Shown here: positions 25,699 to 54,556 of the stretch, piece after piece
Layout: each line of letters starts with the position of its first letter
Numbering within the stretch: position 1 is the first letter of the stretch
Source of the DNA: a bacterium
Lineage (GTDB): Bacteria > Sysuimicrobiota > Sysuimicrobiia > Sysuimicrobiales > Segetimicrobiaceae
Reading direction: 5' to 3'
NCBI GenBank assembly: GCA_036275835.1
Contig: DASUDA010000191.1
Coordinates: 263 to 64,262, forward strand
Length of the DNA: 64,000 bases
Notes under the pieces: generated by a model
Databases searched by the model: none
Seen by the model: only the letters and a program-made list of their open reading frames with translations
What the model was told of the DNA's origin: nothing
Translations under genes and position numbers: made by a program

Positions 25699-26478
25699 GT
25701 GTCCGTGGGGCGGGCCGTGGACATTAACTGCGACCTGGGGGAGAGTTTCGGCGCGTACACGATCGGGGACGACTCCGCGATGATGCCCGTCATCACGTCC
25801 GCCAACATCGCGTGCGGGTTTCACGGGGGAGACCCGCTGGTGATGGAGCGCACCGTGCGCCTGGCGCGCGAGCATGGAGTCGAGATCGGGGCGCATCCGG
25901 GTTTTCCCGACCTGTGGGGGTTCGGCCGCCGCGAGATGCGCTTGTCCGCCGACGAGCTCCGGGCGGTGCTCACATATCAGATCGGCGCCCTGTGGGCGTT
26001 CGCCCGCGCCCAGGGGACGCGGCTGCAGCACGTCAAGCCCCATGGCGCCCTGTATAATATGGCGGCCAACGACGCGGGATGGTCGCGCGTCATCGCCGGC
26101 GCGATCGCCAGCATCGATTCCGGTCTGATTCTGGTGGCGTTGCACGGCTCCGTCATGGAGCGCTCTGGCCGGGACGCGGGCCTGCGGGTTGGCCGCGAGG
26201 CGTTCGGGGACCGCGCCTATAACGCGAACGGGACCCTGGTGCCCCGCGCGCGTCCCGACGCGCTCATCACGGAACCCGCGGCGGTGGCCCGCCGCGTCGT
26301 CGAGATGGTCACGGAGGGGACCGTGGAAACAGTGGACGGCGGTGAGATTCGCCTGGCCCCCGACACGCTCTGCTTCCACGGCGATACGCCGGGAGCGCCT
26401 CGCCTCGCTCACGCAGCACGGGATGCGCTCGTGCGCGTTGGCGTGGAGATCGCGCCGATGGGCCGATGGCTCTCGTGA
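25699..26478 (+). CDS. pxpA: 5-oxoprolinase subunit A (LamB/YcsF family)
   Basis: LamB/YcsF blocks (DINCDLGESFG, NIACGFHGGDP, HVKPHGALYN). No pxpB/pxpC homologs are present in the window. Confidence 0.85.
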   Translation: MSVGRAVDINCDLGESFGAYTIGDDSAMMPVITSANIACGFHGGDPLVMERTVRLAREHGVEIGAHPGFPDLWGFGRREMRLSADELRAVLTYQIGALWAFARAQGTRLQHVKPHGALYNMAANDAGWSRVIAGAIASIDSGLILVALHGSVMERSGRDAGLRVGREAFGDRAYNANGTLVPRARPDALITEPAAVARRVVEMVTEGTVETVDGGEIRLAPDTLCFHGDTPGAPRLAHAARDALVRVGVEIAPMGRWLS

Positions 26479-37548: not shown

Positions 37549-38991
37549 TTACACGTCGTAGTAGAGGAAAAACTCATACGGCACCGGTCGGATGTTGACT
37601 TCATGAGCCTCCTTGACCCGCTTGTATTGGATCCACGTCTCCAGCAGGTCCCGCGTGAACACGTCGCCTTCCAGGAGGAACTCGTGGTCGGCCTCCAGCG
37701 CATCCAGGGACGCGGTGAGAGACCCCGGAACGTTCTTGATTCTCGCGGCGTCCTCGGGATCCAGTTCATAGGTGTTCTTGTCGAGCGGCCCGAACCCCGC
37801 CTTGACGGGGTCGATCTTCCGCTTGATGCCGTCCACACCGGCCATCAGCATCGCCGCGAACGCCAGGTAGGGGTTGCAGCTCGAGTCCGGCGGCCGGAAC
37901 TCGATCCGCTTGGCGGAGGCCGACGCCGGCCCGGTGTAGTACACGGGAATTCGTACACAGGCGCTCCGGTTGCGCTGGCTGAACGCGATATTGACCGGCG
38001 CTTCGTAGTGCGGCACGAGCCGCCGGTAGGAGTTCGTGGTCGGCGCGCACAGCCCCATGAGGGCGTCCACGTGCGTGAGCAGTCCCCCGATGTAGTAGAG
38101 CGCGTCCTGGCTGAGTTCCGCGTAGCCCCCCTCGCGATAGAAAAGGTTTTGGCCGTTCTTCCAGATGCTCTGGTGGACGTGCATGCCGGACCCGTTGTCC
38201 CCAAACAGGGGCTTCGGCATGAACGTCACGGTCATCCCATGCCGCCGGGCAACGTTCTTGGTGATGTACTTGTAGCAGAGGAGGTTGTCTGCCATCCGGG
38301 TGAGGGAGGCGTACTTCATGTCGATCTCCGACTGGCCGGCGGTGGCCACCTCATGGTGCTGCATCTCGACCTCGATCCCCCACTTCTCCAGCTCCAGCGT
38401 CATCTCGCTGCGGATGTCCATCAGCGCGTCGGAGGGCGGGGCGGGGAAGTAGCCTTCCTTATTGCGGAGCCTGTACCCCAACCCGGGCTGCCCGGTGTTC
38501 CAGATGCCCTCCTGGGAGTCGATGCTGTATCCCATCCTGTGGGGGAGCACGTCATACTGCACGTTGGTGAAGATGAAGAACTCGGCCTCGGGGCCGAAAT
38601 AACTCACGTCCCCGATCCCCGATGCTTTGAGGTGCGCTTCCGCCTTCTGGGCCACATAGCGGGCGTCGCGGGTATAGGGCCTTCCTGTCACCGGATCGTT
38701 CACGTTGCAGATGACCGTCAGGGTCGGGATCTCCGTGAACGGGTCAGGCCGCGCGGTGGCCGGGTCGGGCATCAAGAGCATGTCGCTCTCCTCGATCGCC
38801 TGGAAGCCCCGGATGCTGCTCCCGTCGAACCCGATCCCGCGCTTAAACGCCTTCTCGTCTATCTGGCTCGCCGGGATCGTGGTGTGCTGCCAGAGCCCCG
38901 GGACGTCCACAAATTTCAGGTCCACCATTTTGATGCCACGGTCCTTGATGTATGCCACCACATCCTGTGCGGTCATCTCTTTGTTGGTCAT
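37549..38991 (-). CDS. glnA: Glutamine synthetase type I
   Basis: 480 aa with classic GSI blocks (DLKFVD..G, GSS..GF, NAYRRL-type region NSYRRLVP, and the adenylylation-region context). Confidence 0.95.
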
Positions 38992-39218
38992 TCCCCCACC
39001 TCCATGCCCCGGCCCGGGACAGGATCTTGGTCATGCGCGGGCACACGAAAACGCCTCCCGAGCACATGCTCGAAAGGCGTCGCGGCCCGAGGTACGGCTC
39101 AGTACCCAGCGATTCTTATACCATGCCGGCGCGATGGAGTCAACAGCACCGCGTCTCACGGGCGCCAGGAGTTTCGCCACGCGCTCTTGTACTCGTTCAC
39201 GGGATCGGGGAAAGCGCG

Positions 39219-40715
39219 ATGGCGAGCCTTGCGGCAGCCGTTGATCAGGGAACGACCAGCACGCGCTTCATGGTCTTCGACCATGCAGGCAAGGTGGTCG
39301 CTGTGGATCAGAAAGAGCATGAGCAGATCTACCCGAAGCCCGGTTGGGTCGAGCACAACCCCATGGAAATCTGGGAGCGAACCCGCGACGTCATCGACGG
39401 GGTCCTGAAGAAGGGCGTGGTGAATCCCCGGGACATCTCTGCCGTGGGGGTGACCAACCAGCGCGAGACGACTGTCGTCTGGGACAAGGCCACCGGCCGT
39501 CCCGTCTACAACGCGATCGTGTGGCAGGACACCCGCACCGATACGATCTGCAATGACCTGGCCAAAGACGGCGGCCGGGACCGCTTCCGCGCCAAGGTCG
39601 GCCTCCCGCTGGCGACCTATTTCTCCGGCCCGAAGATTAAGTGGATTCTGGACAATGTGAGCGGCGCGCGCGCCCGGGCCGAGCGGGGCGAGATCCTGTT
39701 CGGCAACATCGATACATGGGTGATCTGGAACCTCACCGGCGGCCCCCGGGGCGGCGTGCATGTGACCGACGTCTCCAACGCCTCGCGCACCATGCTGATG
39801 AACCTCGACACACTCGATTGGGACCCCGAGATCCTCAGGATCATGGGGGTGCCGCGGGCCATGCTCCCGGCGATCAAGGCGTCGAGCGAGGCGTACGGCA
39901 CCGCCGAGGGCGCGCTCGCGGGAATCCCCGTGGCGGGCGACCTCGGTGACCAGCAGGCGGCGCTCATCGGCCAGACGTGCTTCTCCGCCGGTGAAGCCAA
40001 GAACACCTATGGCACCGGCTGCTTCATGCTGCTCAACACCGGCACCAGGGCGGTTCAATCCAAGGCCGGCCTGCTGACCACGCTGGCGTACAAGATCGGC
40101 AAAGAGAAGGCCGTGTATGCGCTGGAAGGGTCGATCGCCATCACCGGCGCGCTGGTGCAATGGCTGCGCGACAACATAGGCCTGATCCGGAAGTCCGCCG
40201 ACGTGGAAGCGCTGGCCAGAACGGTGGAGGACAACGGCGGTATCTACTTTGTCCCCGCGTTTTCCGGCTTGTTCGCGCCTTACTGGAAGAGCAACGCCCG
40301 CGGCGTGATCGTCGGCCTGACGCGCTACGTCAACAAAGGCCACATCGCACGGGCGGCGCTGGAAGCCACCGCCTACCAGACGCGCGAAGTGCTCGACGCG
40401 ATGAACAAGGACTCCGGCGTGAACCTCACCGCGCTCAAGGTGGACGGCGGCATGGTCTTCAACGACACACTGATGCAGTTTCAAGCCGACATCCTGGGCG
40501 TAACCGTCATCCGCCCGATCGTCGCCGAGACCGCGTCGCTCGGCGCGGCGTACGCCGCCGGTCTGGCGGTGGGCTTCTGGGAGAAGGTCGAAGAGCTGCG
40601 CGCCAACTGGGGCAAAGACAAGGAGTGGCGGCCCAGGGTGGACACGGCCACCCGCGAACGGCTCTACAAGGGCTGGCTCAAGGCCGTCACCCGGACATTC
40701 GACTGGGTCGAGTAG
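39219..40715 (+). CDS. glpK: Glycerol kinase
   Basis: N-terminal [11 protein letters not shown] and full FGGY kinase pattern. I chose the internal ATG at 39219 from within the track ORF. Confidence 0.95.
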
Positions 40716-40770
40716 CACACTCCCGTGATGCCGCCCGGGGCCGACGCGGCGGAGGGGGCGGACGCGTCGC

Positions 40771-42390
40771 ATGGCCAATCTGAGCACGGACATCCTGGTG
40801 ATCGGCGGCGGCTCGACGGGGCTGGGCGTGCTCCGCGACGCGGCCCTGCGCGGTTTCCGCGTGATCCTTGTGGAGAAGGGCGATCTTGCGCACGGGACCA
40901 CAGGACGCTATCATGGCTTGCTGCACGCGGGCGGGCGGTACGCCGTGAAAGACCCCGTCTCCGCTCGAGAGTGCATTCAAGAAAACCGGATCCTCCGCCG
41001 GATCGCCGCCGACTGCATCGAAGATACCGGGGGGCTGTTCGTCATCACTCCCTGGGACGACCCGGCTTACGGCGACGCATTCCTGCGCGGCTGCGCCGCC
41101 TGCGGTGTGCCGGCAGAAGAGATCTCCCCGGCGGACGCCCTCCGCCGTGAGCCCCGCCTGAATCCCGGGATCTCGCGCGCCTTCGTCGTCCCCGATGCCG
41201 CCATGGACTCCTTCAAAACGCTGTGGGCTAACGCGCGGGATGCGCAGACCCGCGGGGCGCAGGTCCTGACATACCACCGTGTCATGCGGTTGCTCACGCA
41301 GAACGGCGCGGTCGCCGGCGCCGTCGTGCAGAACGTGCGCACCGGTGAAGAGCGCGCCATCGGCGCCGACTTCACCGTGAACGCCTCGGGCGCGTGGGCC
41401 GGGCAGATCGCGGCGATGGCCGGCCTGCGGGTGACGGTTCTGGCGGGCAAGGGCATCATGATCGCCATGAACCACCGCCTTGTGCAGATGGTGGTGAACC
41501 GCTGCAAGCTTCCCTCGGATGGCGACATCATCGTACCCATCCGCACCGTCTGCGTCATCGGCACGACCGACGTCCGCGTTCCCGACCCGGATGAGTACGA
41601 CATCGAGCCGCGCGAAGTCCAGCTCATGCTCGAGGAGGGCGAGAAGCTCGTGCCCGGTTTCCGGCAGGCCCGGGCGCTGCGTGTGTGGGCGGGTGTGCGC
41701 CCCCTCTACCAGGAGCACCGGCCCGACGAGGTGGTCGACACGCGCGAGGTGAGCCGTACCTACACGCTGCTGGACCACCCGCTGCGGGACGGCGTGCAGA
41801 ACTTCATCACCATTACCGGCGGCAAATTCACCACCTACCGCCAGATGGCCGAAGTGACGATGGACGCCGTGTGCCGTGACCTCGGCGTGGAGCGACCGTG
41901 CACGACCGCCCAAGTCCCGCTGCCGGATTCAGAGGCGGGCCGCTACTACTGGCTGGGCGCGCGGCTCGCGTCCCGTGAGAAGACGCTGCATCAGGATCAG
42001 CTCATTTGCGAGTGCGAGTTGATCGCCCGGCACCGTCTGGAAGAGGCGTTCGTCGCTCGCGCGACGACCGACCTCGACGATATCCGGCGCACGCTGCGCC
42101 TGGGAATGGGGCCGTGCCAGGGCGGGTTCTGCATCTACCGCGCCACCGGCATCCTGCACGCCCTTCGCACCGCGCCGCCGTCCTCGGAGGCGCCGGGTCT
42201 GCGGGAGCCGTCATCGCCGGGGACGCCTGCGCTCGCGCCGCACCGTGAGGCCAACTCCGCGCTCGTTCGCTTCCTGCAGGAACGCTGGAAAGGTGTGCGC
42301 CCTCTGCTGTGGGGCGACCAGCTGCGCCAGGCCCGCCTCGACGACTGGATTTTCCAGGGGCTGCTGGATGCCGAGCATCTGCCGCAATGA
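40771..42390 (+). CDS. glpA: Anaerobic glycerol-3-phosphate dehydrogenase subunit A
   Basis: FAD motif DILVIGGGSTG and a GlpA-type C-terminal BFD-like [2Fe-2S] region (CECE...GPCQGGFC). Confidence 0.9.
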   Translation: MANLSTDILVIGGGSTGLGVLRDAALRGFRVILVEKGDLAHGTTGRYHGLLHAGGRYAVKDPVSARECIQENRILRRIAADCIEDTGGLFVITPWDDPAYGDAFLRGCAACGVPAEEISPADALRREPRLNPGISRAFVVPDAAMDSFKTLWANARDAQTRGAQVLTYHRVMRLLTQNGAVAGAVVQNVRTGEERAIGADFTVNASGAWAGQIAAMAGLRVTVLAGKGIMIAMNHRLVQMVVNRCKLPSDGDIIVPIRTVCVIGTTDVRVPDPDEYDIEPREVQLMLEEGEKLVPGFRQARALRVWAGVRPLYQEHRPDEVVDTREVSRTYTLLDHPLRDGVQNFITITGGKFTTYRQMAEVTMDAVCRDLGVERPCTTAQVPLPDSEAGRYYWLGARLASREKTLHQDQLICECELIARHRLEEAFVARATTDLDDIRRTLRLGMGPCQGGFCIYRATGILHALRTAPPSSEAPGLREPSSPGTPALAPHREANSALVRFLQERWKGVRPLLWGDQLRQARLDDWIFQGLLDAEHLPQ

Positions 42391-43658
42391 CCTACGATGT
42401 CATCGTGATCGGCATCGGCCTTGCCGGTCTCACCGCGGGCGTGCACCTTGCTCAGGCGGGGCGGCGTGTGTTGATGCTCGCCAAAGGCGTGGGGGGGACG
42501 CACCTCGGCAGCGGGACGATTGACGTGCTCGGCTATGGGGATGAGCTGATCGAGCGCCCCGCGGCCGCGTTCCCGGACTTTCTCGCCGCCCGCCCGGATC
42601 ACCCCTACGCCCGCACCGGGCTCCCGGCGCTCCGGGCTGCCGCCGCCTGGTTCCTGCGCACGCTGGAGGCCGACGGCTACCCCTTCGCCGGCTCACTGGA
42701 GGACAACCTTCTCCTCCCCACCGCCGTCGGCGCGGTCAAGCCATCGGCCCTCGTCGCGCGGACCATGGCTGCCGGCGATCTGCGCTCCGGGGGACAGGTC
42801 CTCATCGTCGGCTTCCGCAACCTGAAGGATTTCTATCCCGCGCTCCTGTCGGATAACCTCGCCCACGCGAGGCTGCCCGACGGCGCGGGCGTCTCGGCCC
42901 GGTCGATCCTGGTTGATCCTCCCGGTCTCGCGGACGAAGCCGATCTCTCGCCCCTCGACCTTGCCCGCGCCTTCGACCGCCCGGACTTTCGCGCCGCCCT
43001 CGCCGCCGATGTGCGCCCTCAGCTCCGGCCCGGCGAGCGGGTCGGCTTGCCGGCGGTCATCGGTCTCCGGGATCCGCTCGCGGCCTGGCAGGATCTCGAG
43101 GGGCGTTTGGGCGCGCCCGTGTTCGAGATCCCGATGCTGCCGCCGTCCATCCCGGGCATGCGCATCTTTGAGCGGCTCGACCGGGCGCTCCGGGCGGCGG
43201 GCGCGCGCGTGCATATTGGATTCCCCGTGATCGAGGCTCATGTGGCCCGCGGCCGCTGCACGGGCGTGACGACGGGGGGAGCAGCCCGGTCGTATACCTG
43301 GCGGGCGCAGCATGTCGTCCTCGCCGCCGGAGGCATCGCCAGCGGCGGCATCGTCGCCGAATCGGACGGCACCGTCCGCGAGGCTGTGTTCGGTCTGCCG
43401 GTCGTCGGGCGGCCCGCGCCCGAATCGCCCCGCTTTCTTCCCGGGTATTTCGACCGGCACCCGTTCAACCGCGTCGGTCTCGCCGTGGACGACAGCCTGC
43501 GGCCGCTGGACAGCGGAGGCCGTCCGGTCATCATCAATGTACGCGCCGCGGGGGCGATGCTCGCCCACGCCGAGCCGTGGCGCGAAAAATCCGGCGACGG
43601 GATCAGCCTGGCCACCGGCTACCGCGCAGCGAACAGCATTCTGGAAGAACCGCGATGA
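42387..43658 (+). CDS. glpB: Anaerobic glycerol-3-phosphate dehydrogenase subunit B
   Basis: FAD motif DVIVIGIGLAG. Its ATGA start overlaps the glpA stop. Confidence 0.85.
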   Translation: MTYDVIVIGIGLAGLTAGVHLAQAGRRVLMLAKGVGGTHLGSGTIDVLGYGDELIERPAAAFPDFLAARPDHPYARTGLPALRAAAAWFLRTLEADGYPFAGSLEDNLLLPTAVGAVKPSALVARTMAAGDLRSGGQVLIVGFRNLKDFYPALLSDNLAHARLPDGAGVSARSILVDPPGLADEADLSPLDLARAFDRPDFRAALAADVRPQLRPGERVGLPAVIGLRDPLAAWQDLEGRLGAPVFEIPMLPPSIPGMRIFERLDRALRAAGARVHIGFPVIEAHVARGRCTGVTTGGAARSYTWRAQHVVLAAGGIASGGIVAESDGTVREAVFGLPVVGRPAPESPRFLPGYFDRHPFNRVGLAVDDSLRPLDSGGRPVIINVRAAGAMLAHAEPWREKSGDGISLATGYRAANSILEEPR

Positions 43659-44869
43659 TGGTCGCAGACGACGTCCGGCTCACACTCGACCATTGCGTGA
43701 AGTGCAACGTCTGCAACACCTTTTGCCCCGTCTCGAACGTGACGCCGCTCTTCCCCGGGCCGAAATACGTCGGCCCGCAGGCCGAGCGCTTCCGGCTGGG
43801 GGAGGTCTCGCCCGATGCGTCGCTCGACTACTGCTCCGGGTGCGGCATCTGCACGCTGGTCTGCCCGCAGGGTGTCCGGATCGCGGAGATCAACACGAAG
43901 GCGCGTGCCGCCATGGTGGGTGGAAAGATCTCGCTGCGCAACCGCGTGCTGGCCCGCCCCGCGACCCTGGGCCGCCTCGCGCAGCCGATCGCCCCGCTGG
44001 CGAACCTGGCCCTTCGGCTCCGCCCGCTGCGCTGGCTTCTGGACGTCGTCCTCGGCGTCCACCGCGCCGCACCTCTACCCGCGTTTTCCTCCGCGAGTTT
44101 CCAAGGCTGGGCGAGGCGGCACACACCGCCGGTACAGGCGAAGCGCACGGTCGTCTACTTCCACGGGTGCAGCACCAACTATTATGAGCCGCGCCTCGGG
44201 AGGGCCGCCGTGGCCGTGCTCGAGCGCAACGGCTGCCGTGTCATTATCCCGCCTCAAGGTTGCTGCGGCCTGCCGCTGCAGTCCAACGGTGATTTCACCG
44301 GCGCCCGCCGCTACGCGCGCGACCTAGTGGCGCAGCTGCTGCCGTATGCGGCGCAGGGCCTCAACATCGTCACCACCTCCACGAGCTGCTCGCTCATGCT
44401 CAAGCGCGAATACCGCGAGATCCTCGGCCTCGACTCTCCCGACGTTCGTCGGGTGTCGGAGCGCACGTATGATATCTGCGAATACCTGCACGACCTGCAT
44501 GACCAGGGCGAGCTTGATGCCGGCTTTGCCCCGCTCGGTATAACGGTGGCCTATCACGCGCCGTGCCAGCAGAGGGGCCACGGCATCGGCAAGCCCGCGC
44601 TCGATCTTCTCGCGCTTGTCCCAGGTCTGCGCGTGATCGAGATGGACGCGGACTGCTGCGGCACGGCGGGGACGTACGGCTACAAGCGCGAGAAGTACGC
44701 CATCGCGATGGCGGTGGGCGAGAGACTGTTCCGCGACATTCACGCCGCCGGCGCCGACCTGTCCGTCTGCGACAGCGAGACCTGCCGCTGGCAGATCGTG
44801 CACGGCTCAGGCCGCCCGTCCGTCCATCCCGTGTCGGTGCTGGCTCAAGCGTACGGATGGTCTCCGTGA
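43655..44869 (+). CDS. glpC: Anaerobic glycerol-3-phosphate dehydrogenase subunit C (Fe-S/CCG domain protein)
   Basis: Two 4Fe-4S ferredoxin motifs (CVKCNVCNTFCP, CSGCGICTLVCP) and Cys-rich CCG repeats. Its start overlaps the glpB stop. Confidence 0.85.
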   Translation: MMVADDVRLTLDHCVKCNVCNTFCPVSNVTPLFPGPKYVGPQAERFRLGEVSPDASLDYCSGCGICTLVCPQGVRIAEINTKARAAMVGGKISLRNRVLARPATLGRLAQPIAPLANLALRLRPLRWLLDVVLGVHRAAPLPAFSSASFQGWARRHTPPVQAKRTVVYFHGCSTNYYEPRLGRAAVAVLERNGCRVIIPPQGCCGLPLQSNGDFTGARRYARDLVAQLLPYAAQGLNIVTTSTSCSLMLKREYREILGLDSPDVRRVSERTYDICEYLHDLHDQGELDAGFAPLGITVAYHAPCQQRGHGIGKPALDLLALVPGLRVIEMDADCCGTAGTYGYKREKYAIAMAVGERLFRDIHAAGADLSVCDSETCRWQIVHGSGRPSVHPVSVLAQAYGWSP

Positions 44870-44875
44870 GTCCCC

Positions 44876-45010
44876 GTGGTCGGCCTTGTTCTCGTCTCGC
44901 ATAGCGCGAAATTGGCCGAAGGCGTCGCCGAGCTGGCGCGCGGCATGGCGGGGCCGGATGTGCGCATTGCGGCGACAGACGGGCTTGCGCTGCCGGACCA
45001 TCCTCTCGGG
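44876..45010 (+). pseudogene. Remnant of a dhaM-like (dihydroxyacetone kinase phosphotransfer subunit, EIIA-Man-like) gene
   Basis: The first ~45 aa (MVGLVLVSHSAKLAEGVAELARGMAGPDVRIAATDG...GTD) resemble the DhaM N-terminus. The frame then degenerates into Arg/Pro-rich sequence that is antisense to the opposite-strand gene. Confidence 0.35.
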
Positions 45011-45068: not shown

Positions 45069-46886
45069 TTAGCGGCGCGGGCGGCGCGCGCGCGTTCGAG
45101 AGCTCGGCGAACGCCGCGCTGACGGGCGCCGCCGTGAGCGCACGGGGCGGCGCGTGGTCGCCCGGGGACGGGTCTTGGATCCCGCGCGCCCACCCCGGGT
45201 TCGAGAGGCCGGCGATGCGGCTTTCTTCTGAGGCATCGGCCGGGGAAGGCGCCGGGCCGCCGCCCCGGAGGAGGACGGTGCGGGGACGACGCCGCCCACC
45301 GGCACAAGTTCGAACCGCGCCGTTGGCGCCGGCACCGCGGCCCCTCTCACAGCTCCCGGGGCGATCCGGAAGACGGGGCAGAGGAGCACCTCGATCCGGC
45401 CGCCCCCCGGCGCAAACATCGCGGGCAGGTGGAGCGTGCGCAGCCCCACGATCGTGATCGGGCCGGTGGGCGGGGTACTGAGCCACCGCCGCGAGGTCTC
45501 ATACGCCGGCGTCCCGGGGACGGTGACCGCGGTGATGCGCGTCCGGCCGGCTGCGTCGCCAAACGCGAACTGGAACGGCTTCCCCTCGACGAACTGGCTG
45601 CGGCCGCCGAGGAACCGGCCGGTCATGTAGACGTAGGCCGTTTCTGTGGGAGGCACGTGCCGAAACGTCATCATGGCGCCGGTGAACGCCAGCCGGGTTG
45701 GCGTCTGGAAATCCGGGAAGGGGATCGGGTGGACGCTCCCCACCTGCGTCCACTCGGGACCCCCGGGGGCATCCAGGGAGATCGGCGGGAACATTAAGCC
45801 GCGCTCCGTCGACACCGTTCGCACGGGATGGATCTCCAGGAGGTGCGGCACCGCGGGATGTGCCACGGAGACATGGTCGGGAAGCAGGCGGAGGAAGCCC
45901 GTCACCGTGACGCGCTGCTGCGTGGCGATCACCTCATCGAGCAGCTGCCCATAAGTGCTGCGGGCCGTGCCGCCGGCCTCGAGCGCGCCCGGCCGGACGA
46001 CGTTCTGGATGACGCACGCGATCTGGCCGTCGCGGTCGCCCGCCGGGGTAGCCATCAGGCCGAACGCGATGCCGAGGCCGTAGGCGCCTTCTGCCGTTCT
46101 TCCCGTGACATATCCTTCGACGGTCACTTCGGCCCCCGGACCGAACCGGAGGTAGGCCAGGGGCTCGGCCCCGGAGATCACCAGGTCGGCCCCTCCCGCC
46201 CCCCCAGGGAGGATCCGGATCCCGCCGAGGATGCGGAGTAGATCCGCGGGAGTTCGGACCTCGATCCGTCCCGGGCGCTGCGCGGGGGTGTGCCGGCGGA
46301 GCTCGTCCGAGACGAGGATGGCGTGGGCGATATCCCGCATGGGCGTCCTGGTGTTCCGGCTCTGGCGCTGGATACGCTGGAACGCCTCGTGCTCGTCGAT
46401 GCCCTCGCGCTTCATCAGGATCCCCTTCGCCCGCTCCACCATCTTGCGGGTCTCCAGGGTCTCTTTGAACGATCCGACCTCCTGCTGCAGGGCGCGGAGC
46501 TCCGCGAAGCGCGCCATTGCGATCTCGATCGCCGGGACAAGCTCGGCCTCCCGCACGGGCTTGACCAGATAGGCGAGCACCCCGGCTTCCTGCGCGCGAT
46601 GGACGAGGTCGCGCTCGCTCCAGGCGGTCAGCAGGATGATCGGCCGCGGCGATCTCGTCATGATCGTGGACGCGGCGGAGATCCCGTCGAGGCCCGGCAT
46701 CTTGATGTCCATGAAGATGAGGTCGGGAGAGGTCTTGCCCGCCAGGGTGACCGCGTCCTCGCCGTCTCCGGCCTCGCCGACGACTTTGTAGCCATGCTCC
46801 TCCAGCATCGTCCGCAGACCCAACCGGATCACGGGCTCGTCGTCGGCGATCAGGATGCGCAGCGCTTCGGCCATCGCGTCGCGCAC
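45069..46886 (-). CDS. ANTAR response regulator (REC + ANTAR) with an uninterrupted ~400-aa C-terminal extension of unknown function
   Basis: REC domain (ILIADDEP...D..MPGLDG...KP), then an ANTAR helix block (ETRKMVERAKGILMKREGIDEHEAFQRIQRQSRNTRTPMRDIAHAI). The frame then continues with no stop through about 300 aa of protein-like sequence with good GC3 bias, and ends in a Pro/Arg/Ser-rich tail. Its start overlaps the kinase stop (TGATG). Confidence 0.6.
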   Translation of the reverse strand: MRDAMAEALRILIADDEPVIRLGLRTMLEEHGYKVVGEAGDGEDAVTLAGKTSPDLIFMDIKMPGLDGISAASTIMTRSPRPIILLTAWSERDLVHRAQEAGVLAYLVKPVREAELVPAIEIAMARFAELRALQQEVGSFKETLETRKMVERAKGILMKREGIDEHEAFQRIQRQSRNTRTPMRDIAHAILVSDELRRHTPAQRPGRIEVRTPADLLRILGGIRILPGGAGGADLVISGAEPLAYLRFGPGAEVTVEGYVTGRTAEGAYGLGIAFGLMATPAGDRDGQIACVIQNVVRPGALEAGGTARSTYGQLLDEVIATQQRVTVTGFLRLLPDHVSVAHPAVPHLLEIHPVRTVSTERGLMFPPISLDAPGGPEWTQVGSVHPIPFPDFQTPTRLAFTGAMMTFRHVPPTETAYVYMTGRFLGGRSQFVEGKPFQFAFGDAAGRTRITAVTVPGTPAYETSRRWLSTPPTGPITIVGLRTLHLPAMFAPGGGRIEVLLCPVFRIAPGAVRGAAVPAPTARFELVPVGGVVPAPSSSGAAARRLPRPMPQKKAASPASRTRGGRAGSKTRPRATTRRPVRSRRRPSARRSPSSRTRARRPRR

Positions 46887-48535
46887 TATGTCCCGGCCGG
46901 CCGCGGCATCGTGATGACGGCCCGCACGCCGCCGGCGTTGGTCAGCGAGATCCGGCCTTTGAGGTCATCCTGCACAAGCGTGCGCACGATCTGCAATCCG
47001 AGATCGGCCGACCGGTCGGGGGAGAAGTCCTCGGGCAGCCCGACACCGTCGTCCCGGACCTCCAGCCGGAGCGCGTCGCGGCCGAGCGTGAGGGTGATCG
47101 TCACCTGGCCGCCCGATCTCCCGGGGAACGCGTGCTCCATCGCGTTCTGCAGGAGTTCGTTCACGACGAGTGCCAGCGACGTGGCTTGTTGGGTCGGCAG
47201 GGTCGGGTCATCGCCGTCGATCCGGACGTCTAGGGCGAATCCCGGAGGCGCCATGGTCTGAGTCACCGTGTGGACGACGCGCTCGAGCATCGCGCGGACG
47301 GCCACCTGATGGAGCCCCTCCGCGGCCAGGATCTCGTGCACCGCGGCGATGCTGAGGATCCGGTTGATCGTGGACGTGAGGACTTCCCGGCCGGAGACCT
47401 CCCGCCCGTCCCGCATCTGCAGCCGCAGAAGCATCGCGATCGTTTGCAGGTTGTTCTTCACGCGGTGATGCATCTCGCGCACCATCGCCGACTTGACGAC
47501 CAGCCCTGCGTTCTCGATCGCCAGCGCCGTTTGATTCGCGAGCGTCTGCAGCATGTTGATCTCGGACTGCGTAAACTCGTGGCGCCGGCCCGTGTAGCAG
47601 TTGACCACGCCGAGTGTCCGGTCCCGCACTCGCAGGGGGACGGAGAGCAGCGACTCGACATCGACCCGCTCGGACAGCTCGCGCGGGTGAAATCGGGGGT
47701 CGGCCCCGAGATCGGTGCTCATCACGGGCTGCCCTGTGGCGGCGGCTTCGCCGGGGATCCCCTCCCCCACCCGCAGCGTCAGCCGCGGCCGGGGATGCCC
47801 GGTGTCCGGGTGGGCGGCGGCGAGGACCAGTTCTCCACCGTCCATCAGCATCAGCGTGCACAGCGGCGCATCGAAGGCGCGGGCGGCCATCTCGACCAGC
47901 AGCCGGAGGATCTGCTCGAGATACAGGGGCGAGGTGAGGGTCTCACTGACCTCCGCGAGCGTGCTGAGCTCCATGATCCGGCGCCGCATGGTGTCGTAGA
48001 GTCGCGCCTTCTCCAGCGCGCCGCTGGCGAGGTCCGCGATGATGCTGAGAAGTTCCACTTCATCCTCGCTGTACTCGTGCGTGCCGGTCGTCTGCACGTT
48101 GATCGCCCCGAACACTTTGCCGCCGACCGCGAGGGGCACGGCGAGGAGGGACTGAAAGAGGCTCTCGTGGGTCTCCGGCAGATATTTGAATCGCGGGTCG
48201 GCGGTCGCGTTCGTGGCGGCGACCGGTTCGCCCCTCTGGGCCGCCCACCCGGTCAGGCCTTCACCCAGCCGGAGCCGGGCCTGCCCCACCGATTCGGGGG
48301 CCAGCCCGGTGGTGGCCTTGAGCACCAGGTATTCTCCCGACGCGTCGAGCAGATAGATGGAGCAACTGTCGACCCGCATGACATCCGCGGTGTTGCGGGT
48401 GATGAGGGTGAGGGTCGTGTCGAGGTCCAGAGCCGCGCTGATCGCGCGGCTGATCTCGCGGAGGGCGGAGATTTCCGCCGCCTTCCGGGCGACCTGCTCC
48501 GCGAGGTCCGGCGTCCGCCTCCGTACCGGGGTCAT
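46886..48535 (-). CDS. Sensor histidine kinase with tandem GAF domains (HisKA_2 type) plus HATPase_c
   Basis: Two GAF-like regions, then the H-box EMHHRVKNNLQTIAMLL, then ATPase motifs (NELLQNAMEHAF, DDGVGLP, GLGLQIV). Confidence 0.85.
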   Translation of the reverse strand: MTPVRRRTPDLAEQVARKAAEISALREISRAISAALDLDTTLTLITRNTADVMRVDSCSIYLLDASGEYLVLKATTGLAPESVGQARLRLGEGLTGWAAQRGEPVAATNATADPRFKYLPETHESLFQSLLAVPLAVGGKVFGAINVQTTGTHEYSEDEVELLSIIADLASGALEKARLYDTMRRRIMELSTLAEVSETLTSPLYLEQILRLLVEMAARAFDAPLCTLMLMDGGELVLAAAHPDTGHPRPRLTLRVGEGIPGEAAATGQPVMSTDLGADPRFHPRELSERVDVESLLSVPLRVRDRTLGVVNCYTGRRHEFTQSEINMLQTLANQTALAIENAGLVVKSAMVREMHHRVKNNLQTIAMLLRLQMRDGREVSGREVLTSTINRILSIAAVHEILAAEGLHQVAVRAMLERVVHTVTQTMAPPGFALDVRIDGDDPTLPTQQATSLALVVNELLQNAMEHAFPGRSGGQVTITLTLGRDALRLEVRDDGVGLPEDFSPDRSADLGLQIVRTLVQDDLKGRISLTNAGGVRAVITMPRPAGT

Positions 48536-48551
48536 TCCCCTGCCCGACGCC

Positions 48552-50936
48552 TCAGCGCGCTTTGCCGGAGCGCACGAGAGGCTCCCCGGGGCGACCTGCC
48601 GGCATGAGCTCGGCCGCCTCGATCTCCTGGGGTGTGATCCTGCTGCGCCGGTTCATGGCGACGGCCCCGGCCATAAAGAGAAGGGCGGCCGCCACGATGG
48701 CGACCCGCACGCTCCCGCCGAGCGGGGCGATCGCCACCGGAGCGATGAGAATGCTGACGAGATTCATGACCTTGATCAGCGGGTTGAGGGCCGGGCCGGC
48801 CGTATCCTTCAGCGGGTCCCCCACGGTATCGCCGATGACCCCCGCCTTGTGGAACTCCGTGCCTTTGCCGCCCAGAAAGCCGTCCTCGATCTTCTTTTTG
48901 GCGTTATCCCAGGCGCCCCCGGTGTTGGCCATGAACACGGCCAGGAGCTGGCCCGTCAGGATCGCGCCGGCGAGGAAGGCCCCCAGGGGGGCGGCCCCGA
49001 GCCCCATCGCCACCATGATCGGCGCCGCGATCGCGACGACCGCGGGGGACAGGAGTTCCCGCTGCGCCGCCCGGGTCACGATATCGACGGTCCGCTGGTA
49101 GTCCGGCCTCGCCGTCCCCTCCATGATCCCGGGGATCTCGCGGAACTGCCGGCGGACCTCCTCGACCACGTCAAACGCCGACCGCCCCACGGCGCGGATC
49201 AGGAACGCGGAGACGAGGAACGGAACGGCGCCGCCGAGCAAGAGCCCGATGAAGATCAGGGGCAGGTTGACCTGGATCCCCACGCGGGTGAGCGCTTCCG
49301 CCGCCGCGGTCCCGCCCTGGGCCAGAGCCTGGCCGAAGCTTTCCGCCGACGGGAGGAGATGGGCCTGGTCCACGAACGACCGGAACAGCGCCGTTGCCGC
49401 GATCACCGCGGTGGCGATCGCAAACCCCTTCGTCAGCGCCTTCGTCGTATTGCCGGCCTGGTCCAGATGGGCGACGATCCGGCCGGCCCGTGAGCCCTCG
49501 CCCCGTTCCACGCCCGACATCTCGAAGATTCCGTTCGCGTTGTCCACGATCGGCCCGTAGGTGTCCATCGCCAGAATGTATCCGGTCATTGTGAGGAGGC
49601 CGAGCCCGGCCAGGGCGACCCCGTATCCGGCCAGCGCCAGGTCGCCCTGGAAGATCGTATACGAGGCCAGGATCGTGGCGCTGATCGCCAGGATCGCCCA
49701 CACGGAGGACTCCAGCCCGTACCCCAGACCGGACAGGAGAAACGTCGCAGGGCCCGTCTTGGTGGAGTACGCCATCTCCGTCACCGGGCGCTTGTTCGGG
49801 GACGTGAACTGGTCCGTCAGCCACTTGATGACGAGGGCCAGCGCGAGTCCGGTGAGGATCGCGAACGAGAACCTCCAGTCGGGGGTGCCGGTCCGCGGGT
49901 CGGTCAGGTAGAAGGCGTTGACCAGGCCGACCCCCGCGACCGCGGCGACGGCGGAGATCCACAGCCCGCGCGTGATGGGCCCCATCGCGTTTTCCGTCTC
50001 GCCGGGCCCGGCCCGGACTGACCATGTCCCCACGATCGATGCGAACACGCCGACGGCCTGGACGAGAAGCGGGAACAGGATCAGCTTGAGGGCGACCGCC
50101 GGTGCCGCCGGTCCGTACAGCCGCTGGAAATGAGGATCGAGCAGGGCCCCGGCGCCCAGGATGATCGCCGCGACGAGCGTGACCTCGTACGACTCGAAGA
50201 CGTCCGCGGCCATTCCGGCGCAATCTCCGACGTTATCGCCCACATTGTCGGCGATCGTGGCTGCGTTGCGGGGATCATCCTCCGGAATGCCCACTTCGAC
50301 CTTGCCCACCAGGTCGGCTCCCACGTCGGCCACCTTGGTGTAGATCCCGCCGCCGACGCGCATGAATGAGGCGACGAGCGATCCGCCGAACCCAAAGCCG
50401 ATCAGCACCCGGGTCGCGTCTCCCCGGAAGAGCACGAAGATGATCGTCGCGCCGAGGAGCCCCAAACCCACCGTGAACATCCCCGAGACGGTGCCGGCCT
50501 GGAATGCGGTCTCCAGCGCTTCCTTGAAGCTGTGCGTCGCGGCATAGGCCGTCCGCACGTTCCCGCGAACAGCCAGATTCATCCCGACGAAACCGGCCCC
50601 GTAACTCGCCAGGCACCCCATCAGAAACGCCAGGGCGACTCCGATCGCGAGGGTCGGGCTGGCGTTCATCGTCCGATACAGAACGAAGAGGGCGAGGGTG
50701 ATGAGGGCGATGAACACAGACATCGTGCGAAACTGCCGTCCCAAGTAGGCGGCCGCCCCCTCCTGAATCGCTGCGGCAACGGCCTGCATGGACGGCGGCC
50801 CGGGATCGCGCCGGAGCACGCGCACGCTCAGCACCCACCCGTAGGCCAGCGCCGCCGCGGCGGTCCCCAGAACAAGCCATAGCAGCAGGGTCTCAACCCC
50901 GCCGAACAAGGGGAGGGTCACGCTCGATTCGCTCAT
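48552..50936 (-). CDS. hppA: Membrane-bound proton-translocating pyrophosphatase (H+-PPase / V-PPase)
   Basis: 794 aa and highly hydrophobic, with H+-PPase signature regions ([40 protein letters not shown]-like, [16 protein letters not shown]). Confidence 0.9.
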   Translation of the reverse strand: [794 protein letters not shown]

Positions 50937-51002: not shown

Positions 51003-51032
51003 ATCATATCAGAGTCCCGAGTCGCCCTTCAA
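51003..51032 (-). promoter_or_regulatory. Candidate promoter for hppA (TTGAAG, 18-nt spacer, TATGAT, with a TG extension)
   Basis: The reverse complement reads cTTGAAGggcgactcgggactcTGaTATGATggggg, about 60 nt upstream of the hppA start. Confidence 0.35.
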
Positions 51033-51050: not shown

Positions 51051-51075
51051 GGCCGGAAAATGCGCGTTTTCAGGC
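51051..51075. promoter_or_regulatory. Inverted repeat GGCCgGAAAAtgcgcgTTTTCaGGCC immediately after the DUF192 stop and upstream of the hppA -35
   Basis: Read directly as a 9-bp interrupted palindrome. It has no clean U-tract. It could be a weak terminator or an operator. Confidence 0.3.
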
Positions 51076-51669: not shown

Positions 51670-53238
51670 CTACCGGGCCAGGGCCTCCAGCCACCCCAGG
51701 ATTCGCGGGACGGCGGGGTTGTCGACCGCCACTTCGACGTCGAGATGAGTATACTCCGGCAGATACTCCATGCTCACCTCCTGAGGCGGCGTGGCGATCC
51801 GGCGGAGGTAAAAGACGGTCTCGCCGGAGTTGCGGATCAGGCCGTGCCCTGCTCCGATGATCAGGAGCGGGAGCGAGGTGTACCTCACCTGGGTCAGGCT
51901 GAGGTATTGGCGGGCAAAGGGATCGCTTGTGTCGAGGCCGGCGCCGAGGCCGATATCAAGGACCAGCCGCCAGGGCACATACCACTGGGTGAAATCTCCT
52001 CCCGGCCGCAGGATCGCCTCCTCGAGCATCCGCAGGTCCACACGCCCGCGCGGAATGCTCCTGTCGTAAGGAATCCAGCGGATGAGCGTGTCCCCCGGAG
52101 CTGGCTGCCCGCTCCGGAGATCCAGCAGTCCCCCGGGGGCGATGCCCTCCGGATCTGGAATATGCTGGAAGACCCCCCGCGGACTGCCGACCCCCGTGCG
52201 GATAAAGAGATCCGACTGCATTTGGTCGGAGAGAATGGCGCCCAGCAGGGCTTCGTTTGTGATCGAGAGGCCCCGTCTCGGTGGGAACGGGAAATAACTG
52301 GCCTCGTCAGGCCGCAGGTACGCGTACGCCGCCACCACGTCAAACAGGAGGCTGTCCTCCGTCCGCGCCAGGCTCGAGGTATCGGTAAAGGGGCCGACCC
52401 GCCGGCCGGAATCCGGGGCGACGAGGTCTTCCACTCCGGGGATGCGGCCGACAAATGGGAGGCGGAATCCGCGCGTATACTCCGCCGGCGCCAGGCGCGG
52501 GATGATCCTGAGCGGGAGACCATCCAGCAGCAGGAGGCCCTGGAGATCGTGCGCTCCGGCCTCTTCCGAGGGAGCGGGAACGTCTTTTGCCAGCGGCACG
52601 GGAACCGGGCCCGGGATTCGTCCGAAGTCGTATCCCGCATACATGGCGGCCAGGATTGCGCCCAGCGAGTGGCCCCCGAGGATCACGCGCGTCTCGGGAA
52701 ACCGCCGGCGCACTTCCTGAACGACGGCGCGGATGTCCCGCAGGTGCATGTCGAGCCCCCAGAACGCGGCGTACCCCGCGGCGTTCCTGTCGAGCCGATG
52801 AAACGTCTGGCCGTCGATCGGCATCCTGCCGAAGTAGTAGGCGAGCGCGAAATCGGGATGATGATAGTCCAGCGCGGCCTCGACGCCCCGCCGGTCCTGC
52901 AGGAGGCTGGGGCGCGATTCGACGACCCACACCTCCAGCGTGCGCCCGCGGGCGACGAGCGCCCGAGCGAGAAGGTCGAGCGTGTTCGGCCCGGAGTTCA
53001 GTCCCGGGATGAGCACCAGGCCGGTGCGGGGGTCCGGGGACCCCGGGATGTAATAGCGGAAGGCTCGGATCCGGTTGAGCAGGGCGGGTGTGTGAGGCTC
53101 GTCGAGGCCCTCAAGCACGATGTGCTCGCGCGTGACGCTCTCGGCGGAGGCGGCGCCGCGCGCCGGTTCCGTCACGCCGACGGGCGCCGTCGCGCAGACG
53201 ATCAGGAGCAGCACTCCTGCAGGGGGAAGGCGGCTCAT
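51670..53238 (-). CDS. Secreted alpha/beta hydrolase (lipase/esterase-like)
   Basis: Signal peptide MSRLPPAGVLLLIVCATAPVGV and the nucleophile elbow GGHSLGA. I chose the internal ATG at 53238 from within the 592-aa track ORF. Confidence 0.65.
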   Translation of the reverse strand: MSRLPPAGVLLLIVCATAPVGVTEPARGAASAESVTREHIVLEGLDEPHTPALLNRIRAFRYYIPGSPDPRTGLVLIPGLNSGPNTLDLLARALVARGRTLEVWVVESRPSLLQDRRGVEAALDYHHPDFALAYYFGRMPIDGQTFHRLDRNAAGYAAFWGLDMHLRDIRAVVQEVRRRFPETRVILGGHSLGAILAAMYAGYDFGRIPGPVPVPLAKDVPAPSEEAGAHDLQGLLLLDGLPLRIIPRLAPAEYTRGFRLPFVGRIPGVEDLVAPDSGRRVGPFTDTSSLARTEDSLLFDVVAAYAYLRPDEASYFPFPPRRGLSITNEALLGAILSDQMQSDLFIRTGVGSPRGVFQHIPDPEGIAPGGLLDLRSGQPAPGDTLIRWIPYDRSIPRGRVDLRMLEEAILRPGGDFTQWYVPWRLVLDIGLGAGLDTSDPFARQYLSLTQVRYTSLPLLIIGAGHGLIRNSGETVFYLRRIATPPQEVSMEYLPEYTHLDVEVAVDNPAVPRILGWLEALAR

Positions 53239-53281
53239 AGGTCGGTCTACACAAGACAAATACGTTTGGGGTGGACAGGAA

Positions 53282-54556
53282 ATGCCCTGCCTGGCCGCGA
53301 ACCGACAGTCCTCCGTGACCGAGTTCGACGTCATCGTCGTGGGAGCGGGTCCAGCCGGCTCCGAGGCGGCGCGCGCGTCTGCGCGGGCCGGGCTGCGCAC
53401 CCTGGTGGTGGAGGAGCACGGCTCCGTCGGAGCGCCGAGCCACTGCACGGGTAAGCTGTCACATCACGCCTTCCGCGAGTTCGATCTGCCCGCGGCCCTC
53501 GCCCAGAACGCGGTGAGCGCTGCGGTGTTCCACTCGCCCGGCGGCGTCTCCGTCCGCCTGCGGCGGGCGGCCGTGGATTCCTACGTCGTGGATCGCGTCG
53601 CCTTCGACCGGTGGCTCGCGGCCCGTGCCGCGGACGCAGGTGCCCGCGTGCTCACGGGTATCCGCATCGTGCACGCAGAGCGGGAGAACGGCAGAATGGT
53701 CGTCCGCGGCCAGCGCCGCGGGCGGCGCGAGGAGACGTTCGTCGCGCGGTGCCGGCTCATCATCGACGCGGAAGGCGCCTCTCCGCGCCTGCCGGGCACG
53801 CTGGGCGTTCGCCTGCCGCGCCGGTACGCGCTCGGCCTGCAGTACGAGATGCGGGGCGTTGGCGCGCTTATCCCGGATACCCCCGAGACGTTTTTCGGCA
53901 GTGAGGTGGCCCCGGGATTCTTCGCCTGGCTGATGCCGGTGGGCGGAAGTCGCGCCCGCGTGGGACTATGCGTAGATCCCCGACTGACCCGGCGCGCTCC
54001 GGTCTGGTACCTCGAGCGTCTCCTCGCCACTCACCCGGCGCTCCGGGACCGGGTGGCCGGAGCGGTGGTGGAACAGAAGGTCGCGGGCCGGATCCCCCTG
54101 CTGACGGCGCGATTCACGGCCGGCACAGACGGGATGGTTGTGGTCGGGGATGCCGCCGGCCAGGTCAAGGCCACGTCGGGCGGAGGCATCTACTTTGCGA
54201 TGATCGCCGGCCGCATCGCGGGCGAGGTGGCGGGTCGGTCCGCCGCGAGGGAGCGGACGGCCGCGGCCGCGTACGAACGGCGATGGCGGCAATACCTCGG
54301 GCGTGAGGTCGCGTTCACGGCGTTCGGCCGGCATGCGATCAATCGGCTCTCCGACGGTGAACTGGATCTGATCCTGCGTCTGATCGCCGAGAGCCCGCGC
54401 ATTCGGGCCAGTATCGAGGCTGCGGGCGACACACAGTTTCAGTCGCGCGTCTTCCTTCCGCTCCTGCGCGGTCTGGCGGCCGTCGGGCTTCGCCGGCCGG
54501 CCGTGATTCCCCTCGTCGGGAAGGCGCTTCTCCAGGGGATGCTGGCGCAGGTGTAA
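53282..54556 (+). CDS. Geranylgeranyl reductase family FAD-dependent oxidoreductase
   Basis: DVIVVGAGPAGSEAAR dinucleotide motif and a GGR-family pattern (VVGDAAGQVKATSGGGIYFA). The ATG at 53282 is only 43 nt from the divergent hydrolase start. Confidence 0.8.
   Translation: MPCLAANRQSSVTEFDVIVVGAGPAGSEAARASARAGLRTLVVEEHGSVGAPSHCTGKLSHHAFREFDLPAALAQNAVSAAVFHSPGGVSVRLRRAAVDSYVVDRVAFDRWLAARAADAGARVLTGIRIVHAERENGRMVVRGQRRGRREETFVARCRLIIDAEGASPRLPGTLGVRLPRRYALGLQYEMRGVGALIPDTPETFFGSEVAPGFFAWLMPVGGSRARVGLCVDPRLTRRAPVWYLERLLATHPALRDRVAGAVVEQKVAGRIPLLTARFTAGTDGMVVVGDAAGQVKATSGGGIYFAMIAGRIAGEVAGRSAARERTAAAAYERRWRQYLGREVAFTAFGRHAINRLSDGELDLILRLIAESPRIRASIEAAGDTQFQSRVFLPLLRGLAAVGLRRPAVIPLVGKALLQGMLAQV

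Follow-up and report, generated by a model that had tools for sequence, protein, structure and literature searches.

The 64,000-nt stretch of contig DASUDA010000191.1 (assembly GCA_036275835.1) analyzed here, hereafter called the window, carries three consecutive genes on its minus strand. The first, hppA (48552-50936), encodes a membrane H+/Na+-translocating pyrophosphatase of 794 amino acids (Pfam H_PPase, E 2.2e-240). It is followed by a gene for a sensor histidine kinase of 549 amino acids (46886-48535) with the Pfam domain order GAF-GAF-HisKA_2-HATPase_c, similar to PdtaS but giving no PAS match, and by a gene for a response regulator (45069-46886) in which a receiver domain (REC) is combined with the RNA-binding ANTAR domain. 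The regulator continues far beyond ANTAR into a module, here named X, and a basic tail. We present evidence that this fusion is almost certainly genuine, that X very probably adopts a tandem OB-fold according to structure prediction, and that the leader of the nearby glnA gene carries a likely terminator/antiterminator switch on which the regulator might act. The positions of the three minus-strand open reading frames (ORFs) and the 16-nt spacing between hppA and the kinase gene agree with an earlier annotation made from the sequence (the original prediction).

The regulator ORF comprises 605 codons when counted from a GTG start in the ORF listing. Judging from homologues, whose N-termini read MAEALRIL, translation more probably begins at the ATG at 46874, giving a protein of 601 amino acids. 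REC occupies ORF residues 11-120 (46527-46856, minus strand; Pfam Response_reg, E 6e-28), and it has D15, D16, D60, T87 and K109, each of them invariant or almost so in alignment A1. ANTAR spans ORF residues 141-191 (46314-46466, minus strand; PF03861, 74.7 bits versus a cutoff of 27.3). Kinase and regulator genes had been described as overlapping in TGATG; the junction instead reads TAGTG, the kinase stop being TAG (46888-46886) with a 1-nt overlap with the possible GTG start, and the gap from the kinase stop becomes 11 nt if the ATG at 46874 is used. In nine relative loci, encoding regulators of 66-80% identity to the window's over the extension, this junction varies between an overlap of 4 nt and a gap of 16 nt. 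The tight coupling suggested for the two genes by their spacing holds despite the revised junction.

Following ANTAR, the regulator frame remains open for 414 more codons until its stop, in line with the uninterrupted frame of about 400 codons with strong third-position GC bias that had been noted before. GC content at third codon positions (GC3) is 0.78-0.94 and at second positions (GC2) near 0.5 up to about residue 525, as expected of genuine coding sequence at a genomic GC content of ~70%. X is a module of ~320 amino acids, joined behind ANTAR by a linker of ~15 amino acids. Its first half (residues ~211-361; 45804-46256, minus strand) contains the N-terminal helix RTPADLLRIL and a predicted first OB-fold, its second half (residues ~362-532; 45291-45803, minus strand) an inter-OB segment and a predicted second OB-fold. 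The remainder is a tail of 73 amino acids (45072-45290, minus strand).

For this long frame the original prediction had offered two readings, a genuine REC-ANTAR-X fusion and a downstream gene merged into the regulator by frameshift or deletion. Searches with an extension-only query (regulator residues 196-549) returned 58 proteins, nearly all of 575-615 amino acids and with precomputed REC and ANTAR domains. Identity over the extension among these matches is 63-97%, and they originate from JGI, ENA, NCBI and Logan assemblies. Forty-eight independent homologues from metagenomes and metagenome-assembled genomes share the REC-ANTAR-extension-tail architecture. Conservation runs unbroken from REC through the motif ELVPVGG at residue 532 (alignments A1 and A2). 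Ratios of nonsynonymous to synonymous substitution rates (dN/dS), calculated pairwise against six relatives by the Nei-Gojobori method, are 0.09-0.13 for REC-ANTAR, 0.13-0.30 and 0.10-0.17 for the first and second halves of the extension, and 0.41-0.70 for the tail. The values of 0.10-0.30 lie close to those of REC-ANTAR and indicate that the extension is translated in the regulator frame and is under purifying selection. The first reading is borne out by the extension matches, nearly all of which carry REC and ANTAR, and by this in-frame selection. The second has to be abandoned, as homologues exist and the extension passes coding-potential tests against relatives. We consider the fusion genuine with near certainty.

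Named members of the family belong to Candidatus Segetimicrobium genomatis (ANGP1) of the phylum Candidatus Sysuimicrobiota, and the fusion is so far confined to this one uncultured phylum of soil bacteria. One database homologue of 417 amino acids, P0054, has Arg/Pro/Gly-rich sequence past about residue 365 and probably stems from a frameshifted contig. It exemplifies a true frameshift in the regulator gene, in contrast to the intact frame of the window.

The tail is polybasic and disordered, rich in Arg, Ser, Pro, Thr and Ala, and contains no acidic residue at all. Its Pro/Arg/Ser character had been taken for decay. This view is contradicted by its universal presence: in 48 of 48 homologues, ELVPVGG is followed by 46-86 amino acids with 29-43% Lys plus Arg and 0-3 acidic residues, the median net charge being +23. 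Counted over nine loci, the true frame runs through 592 codons without a stop and has a Lys content of 6.6%, versus at most 1% in the other five frames. The tail GC2 of 0.88 was considered as a mark of coding on the opposite strand and set aside, because the codon composition for Arg, Pro, Ala, Ser and Thr accounts for it. The tail is a conserved polycationic disordered segment, of which the composition is held while the sequence varies.

With respect to family membership, X has no match in Pfam, NCBIfam, PHROGs or PADLOC, and an X profile compared with PDB sequences yielded nothing below E 0.19. Exhaustive comparison with 1.84 billion cluster representatives by phmmer gave 19 matches in total. 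These include free-standing proteins of ~300 amino acids that are 26-39% identical and align to X residues 10-310, their N-terminus coinciding with the helix RTPADLLRIL that opens X. A second search, carried out with profile A8 made from free-standing members only (a search with profile A3 was dominated by the fused family), revealed ~30 clusters of free-standing X proteins, all annotated as hypothetical. Overall, free-standing relatives are rare and share 24-39% identity, and fused and free-standing forms together amount to ~80 clusters. From the end-to-end free-standing homologues it follows that X was once an independent gene that became fused behind ANTAR.

Structure prediction by AlphaFold2 was poor with close homologues only (pLDDT 52.5) and reached a pLDDT of 84.2 and a pTM of 0.82 with the free-standing relatives added (mdc4e1aed78d4). 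The model shows two canonical OB units of the order beta1-beta2-beta3-alpha-beta4-beta5, the first consisting, in model numbering, of E52-62, E72-77, E88-92, H110-121, E124-133 and E149-159, and the second of E217-227, E237-242, E249-254, H259-267, E276-284 and E299-309. Foldseek searches of the PDB returned single-domain matches with E values from 1.9e-4 to 1e-3 and probabilities of 0.9-1.0. One group comprises the anticodon-binding OB domains of AspRS, AsnRS and LysRS, SSBs and engineered OBodies, the synthetase and SSB matches falling on OB-fold 1. A second group consists of tandem-OB proteins (editosome 4dni, Teb1 3u58, LEF-3 7ypo, HIN 3rlo and Thermus SSB), the first four of which are matched by OB-fold 2. 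The viral library contributed phage SSBs and LEF-3. At the sequence level, the Pfam model tRNA_anti-codon (PF01336) matches one of 11 family members, a free-standing protein, with E 0.0015, and does not match the window protein at E up to 5. Fused and free-standing forms both keep R132, Y217, F224, F239, R282 and R306, among which are Arg and aromatic residues of the OB strands. Judged by this model, X is very probably a tandem OB-fold.

Most free-standing members additionally carry a polar cluster (D64, D66, H68, C84, E85, H120, H132, E135, H137 and D156 in A8). It is partly lost in the fused proteins, in which DxDxH is replaced by GLGIAF, CE by CV and DCPD by DAPG, and the free-standing P0118 lacks it as well, having CKLTN and IFDLNP instead. 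A metal-binding or catalytic site in X was set aside on account of these losses.

Two of the free-standing homologues, P0060 and P0118, are 64% identical to each other; their genes directly follow, at a distance of 130-190 nt and in the same orientation, those for a GAF/LytS-type kinase and a REC-LytTR regulator. Such loci (L015, 5665-8906; L016, 5723-8909; L017, 4363-7549) belong to a lineage of 65-68% GC, and an AT-rich, promoter-like region of their own precedes genes of the P0060/P0118 type. This two-component neighbourhood was seen in one high-GC lineage only, and in the loci examined no low-GC free-standing homologue has a two-component pair as neighbour. The low-GC genes (L018 and L019, both at 34% GC, and L020-L023) lie on gene-sparse contigs, where a multicopper oxidase, ParB and, ~3.4 kb off, a lone receiver-domain protein were observed. 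A scan of metagenome loci for free-standing homologues gave four short contigs without informative neighbours.

Gene order around the regulator is well preserved. In all nine relative loci, as in the window, it reads DUF192-hppA-kinase-regulator-glnA-nadE-mfd, with 0 to 5 genes inserted between regulator and glnA. In the relatives, an alpha/beta-hydrolase-like gene lies ahead of DUF192 (absent in L014) and mazG follows mfd. The spacings hppA-kinase and kinase-regulator range across loci from a 4-nt overlap to 34 nt. That hppA, kinase and regulator form one transcription unit, as had been proposed, is supported by the order conserved in nine loci; this support is one of synteny, and co-transcription is accordingly put forward as probable. 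Within the 64-kb window, REC, ANTAR or kinase genes occur only in this regulator system. Upstream of DUF192, a 592-amino-acid ORF (51670-53448, minus strand) without Pfam match at E 1e-5 or better was observed as a conserved neighbour; positional counterparts exist in eight of the nine relative loci and have faint or weak Hydrolase_4 matches or none.

A consensus scan placed a putative promoter of the hppA unit at 51003-51032 (minus strand; TTGAAG, an 18-nt spacer and TG-TATGAT), of which TTGAA and TATGATG are conserved in alignment A10 (8 loci). About 20 nt upstream of its -35 element lies the inverted repeat GAAAACGCGCATTTTC (51056-51071, minus strand). The form GAAAA-N6-8-TTTTC recurs in 6 of the 8 aligned loci, making the repeat a candidate operator of the unit. 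Neither a terminator nor a dual hairpin was found in the hppA leader.

Between regulator and glnA, the window contains an inserted glpK-glpABC cluster on the plus strand (39222-44869, Pfam) that ends in a truncated dhaM-like remnant of 35 residues (44876-45010, plus strand; Pfam EIIA-man, profile positions 1-35 of 116, E 1e-4). In relatives, this interval is empty or filled by small cassettes (ArsR, AHSA1, glyoxalase, ABM, DinB; one with a transposase). Such varied cassettes at a single site suggest an insertion hot spot, the dhaM remnant marking the insert rather than damage to the regulator. The fragment that the original prediction had linked to gene decay is thus real but, as the end of an inserted glycerol cluster, has no bearing on the integrity of the regulator.

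Beyond the insert lies glnA, encoding glutamine synthetase (37549-38991, minus strand; Pfam Gln-synt_N and Gln-synt_C, E 2.9e-124), followed by the gene for a glutamine-dependent NadE (35563-37383, minus strand; Pfam NAD_synthase and CN_hydrolase). Read from the sequence, glnA has a near-consensus promoter (39115-39143, minus strand; TTGACT, a 17-nt spacer and TG-TATAAG), with TTGAC and TGGTATAA invariant in alignment A5. Its leader contains two hexaloop hairpins (39075-39107, minus strand), P1 being GGGUAC-UGAGCC-GUACCU and P2 GGGC-CGCGAC-GCCU, and an intrinsic terminator (39048-39080, minus strand) followed by a UUUU tract. The same element was found in ten relative loci (L001, 11818-11880; L004, ~11260; L005, ~1401; L008-L014, upstream of glnA). 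The consensus across loci is P1 GGUAC-hexaloop-GUACC, a linker of 2-4 nt and P2 GGGC-CNNGAY-GCCY. The terminator has 11-12 bp, and its 5' arm opens with the 3' arm of P2, four nucleotides being common to both.

Comparison of 11 loci supports both structures. For P1 and P2 together, 95.6% of cells are paired, and the outer P2 pair 31-44 is GC in five loci, AU in three and GU in three. In the 11-bp core stem of the terminator, 92.6% of cells are paired and four pairs show compensatory changes. P2 and the terminator have columns 41-44 in common, and column 44 covaries with column 31 in P2 as well as with column 71 in the terminator. Such double covariation is the hallmark of structures that exclude each other. 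The minimum-free-energy fold of the leader is P1 plus terminator (z = -3.99), implying that P2 would need to be stabilized. From these pairings, a genuine terminator/antiterminator switch in the glnA leader is very probable.

R1, a covariance model built from P1 and P2, scores 47.8 bits (E 1.9e-9) on the window site. It finds exactly one significant copy in each glnA-containing locus (10 relatives and the window), always upstream of glnA, and no second copy in the window or in 11 loci, every hppA leader included. Rfam gave no match at the gathering threshold over the whole window and, at E up to 10, nothing but chance terminator-like matches in the glnA leader. Described ANTAR targets consist of two stem-loops of at least 3 bp with hexaloops carrying A1 and G4, separated by a linker of 2-25 nt, with the second hairpin opposing a terminator (PMC3369931, PMC8164766). 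When the window was scanned naively for pairs of hexaloops with strict A1 and G4, 7 sites emerged versus 2.9 expected from shuffles, none of them near hppA, kinase or regulator. The best such site (25814-25856, plus strand), a 9-bp stem with loop ACGGGG followed by a 4-bp stem with loop AGCGCA, lies within overlapping long ORFs, and sites of this kind are not enriched over shuffled sequence. The ANTAR dual hexaloop sought by the original prediction in the hppA leader was therefore found there neither by the naive scan nor by R1; a related element sits in the glnA leader instead. In this element, G4 is kept in P2 of 11 of 11 loci and in P1 of 8 of 9.

As a whole, these data are in our view best explained by a REC-ANTAR-X-tail regulator of the Sysuimicrobiota that antiterminates glnA, an explanation that we hold with about even confidence. 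The cytoplasmic GAF-GAF-HisKA_2 kinase would sense a metabolite, probably one related to nitrogen status, and phosphorylate REC. Its first GAF domain most resembles those of PtsP/EI-Ntr (NCBIfam PtsP model, residues 23-180 of the kinase, E 2.3e-35) and NifA (NifA model, E 3.7e-26). This fits a role in nitrogen control, as does the lack of any further REC, ANTAR or kinase gene in the window. The activated ANTAR dimer would bind nascent RNA at the two hexaloop hairpins of the glnA leader and hold P2 against the terminator, allowing read-through into glnA-nadE; the pairing in this step comes from covariation, and the part of the protein is proposed. The tandem OB and the basic tail, by their fold and charge, may add non-specific or single-strand RNA contacts that raise affinity or residence time. 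Regulator and kinase would be produced together with hppA from the conserved promoter bearing the candidate operator.

Confidence differs between the parts of this scheme. That the regulator is what controls the glnA switch has, in our estimation, an equal chance of being right or wrong. RNA binding by X and the tail, proposed from fold and charge, seems slightly less probable than that. Two further ideas on X are put forward tentatively and, even when counted jointly, seem rather unlikely. X and the tail may constitute an output module of a new kind, with ANTAR on the hexaloops and an OB clamp plus tail on single-stranded RNA or the elongation complex; or X may represent a new accessory-domain family of two-component systems, possibly providing a second, kinase-independent input.

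Several observations weigh against antitermination of glnA by an RNA-binding REC-ANTAR-X protein. The Foldseek TM-scores are ~0.2, so that structural support is at fold level and for single domains; the low values arise because one barrel superposes at a time. The X core is near neutral (median net charge -1, isoelectric point (pI) 6.7) and the majority of free-standing homologues have an acidic pI of 4.9-5.8, which is atypical of nucleic-acid binders. The occurrence of free-standing X next to a DNA-binding LytTR regulator in one high-GC lineage suggests that it may serve two-component signalling apart from RNA. On the RNA side, the consensus A1 is found in 2 of 9 P1 loops (mostly U) and in none of the P2 loops (always C), and L008 and L011 have a degenerate P1. 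Insertions separate regulator from glnA at six of the nine relative loci, and likewise in the window, and the linkage could therefore be historical. Finally, the search for RNA targets covered ~20 kb per genome.

The main rival explanation takes X for a ligand-binding or protein-docking module of two-component signalling that gates or localises ANTAR, for instance by supplying a second input or by docking to the kinase or some other partner, with only the tail touching RNA. OB-folds also act as ligand and protein binders, and this view is in keeping with the position of P0060 and P0118 behind a kinase and a REC-LytTR regulator, with the acidity of most free-standing proteins and with the resemblance of their polar cluster to a ligand or metal site. 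However, the two-component neighbourhood is confined to one lineage and missing around the low-GC homologues, and the polar cluster is partly lost upon fusion and not kept in P0118. Moreover, the fused lineage has added a tail of charge +23 directly after X, which fits contact with nucleic acid. We regard a ligand-binding or docking role as unlikely, while giving it real weight.

Another explanation accepts the attenuator and places the RNA target of the regulator elsewhere in the genome, for instance in translation control of the kind proposed for ANTAR targets of mycobacteria, some other factor working the glnA leader. Actinobacteria are known to have ANTAR RNAs that overlap start sites (PMC8164766). 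The hexaloops without A1, the promoter that glnA has of its own, the inserts that part it from the regulator at most loci and the restriction of the RNA search to the flanks of the regulator gene would all agree with such a target. Against it, the window holds a single ANTAR gene, and the element has the geometry of an ANTAR target, with two hexaloop hairpins 2-4 nt apart, the second of which (P2) overlaps the terminator. In all loci examined, moreover, the regulator has glnA as a neighbour, at present or ancestrally, and GnfR provides a precedent (PMC2995071). A target elsewhere thus appears doubtful, and antitermination of glnA by the regulator is retained as the preferred reading.

X is very unlikely to be an active or degenerate enzyme, such as a metal-dependent phosphoesterase or nuclease with an OB-like barrel, possibly tied to the pyrophosphate metabolism of hppA. 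Family I pyrophosphatase and staphylococcal nuclease are OB-fold enzymes, most free-standing members conserve the Asp/His/Glu/Cys cluster, and hppA is probably co-transcribed with the regulator; but the top 50 Foldseek matches in the PDB and the viral library include no pyrophosphatase or nuclease, no Pfam or NCBIfam hidden Markov model matches X, and the cluster varies within the family. Least probable by far is an artefact, by which an assembly error, frameshift or deletion joined a REC-ANTAR gene of ~200 amino acids to a separate downstream gene: free-standing X homologues, which imply that both parts were once separate genes, and the dhaM remnant on the opposite strand could be cited for it, but 48 independent assemblies have the same continuous frame at 63-97% identity, neither a stop nor a start is conserved at the ANTAR-X junction, dN/dS is 0.1-0.3 throughout X in the regulator frame, and P0054, the one visibly frameshifted copy, looks very unlike the frame of the window, so that the concordant assemblies and the in-frame selection lead us to reject an artefact for practical purposes.

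Regulators of this class, attenuation of this logic and OB-folds are already known; what is new is their combination, the domain family and the divergent loop consensus. Neither an ANTAR protein bearing an OB module at its C-terminus nor an operon of hppA with an ANTAR gene turned up in the searchable literature. With the extension, a protein family is defined that Pfam, NCBIfam, PHROGs and PADLOC do not contain. An OB module and a polycationic tail placed after ANTAR suggest antitermination by several RNA-contacting elements, or gating by an extra domain. The probable, conserved co-transcription with a proton-pumping pyrophosphatase may tie energy or pyrophosphate status to the synthesis of glutamine and NAD. 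For the Sysuimicrobiota, which have no cultured members, a testable nitrogen-assimilation circuit can be proposed that consists of the GAF kinase, REC-ANTAR-X and the glnA attenuator.

With OB nucleic-acid binders (tRNA_anti-codon, SSB, Teb1/RPA, KREPA, LEF-3 and HIN), the X model shares two five-stranded barrels, the helix between beta3 and beta4, and conserved Arg and aromatic residues on its strands, and its single-domain Foldseek matches to this class have probabilities of 0.99-1.0. X differs from them in that it lacks sequence membership and has a neutral to acidic core, and the relative orientation of the barrels in the model matches none of the solved tandem OBs (TM ~0.2). The tail is comparable to the C-terminal tails of mycobacterial HupB and actinobacterial topoisomerase I, which are rich in Lys, Arg, Ala and Pro. 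All are of low complexity, strongly cationic and free of acidic residues, with conserved composition and variable sequence. Unlike those, the tail described here sits on a putative RNA-binding antiterminator, is rich in Arg, Ser and Thr and has no repeats of the PAKKA type.

ANTAR regulators are widespread and, to our knowledge, known architectures have ANTAR at the C-terminus as sole output. The regulator resembles EutV, AmiR, NasT, PdtaR (Rv1626) and GnfR in its REC, coiled-coil and ANTAR, in possessing all phospho-acceptor residues, in its pairing with a HisKA_2-type kinase and in a neighbouring leader, ahead of a nitrogen-assimilation gene, whose hexaloop hairpins compete with a terminator. 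Whereas the known proteins end no more than ~20 amino acids after the ANTAR helices (~190-210 amino acids), a further 414 amino acids follow here; in addition, the loop consensus lacks A1 and the kinase-regulator pair is probably co-transcribed with hppA. As in Mycobacterium PdtaS/PdtaR, a cytoplasmic GAF-containing HisKA_2 kinase is combined with a REC-ANTAR regulator, and JGI annotates several of the regulator homologues as PdtaR. In contrast to that system, the two genes are adjacent here and lie within the presumed hppA operon, and the regulator is three times longer. The sensor part of the kinase also differs, with two GAF domains against GAF-PAS in PdtaS and no sensor domain in GnfK. In Geobacter GnfK/GnfR, a REC-ANTAR regulator antiterminates nitrogen genes via CAGGCAANGGCGCC, a GGC-hexaloop-GCC hairpin (PMC2995071), and this GnfR site, GGC-AANGGC-GCC, resembles P2 of the glnA leader, GGGC-CNNGAY-GCCY.

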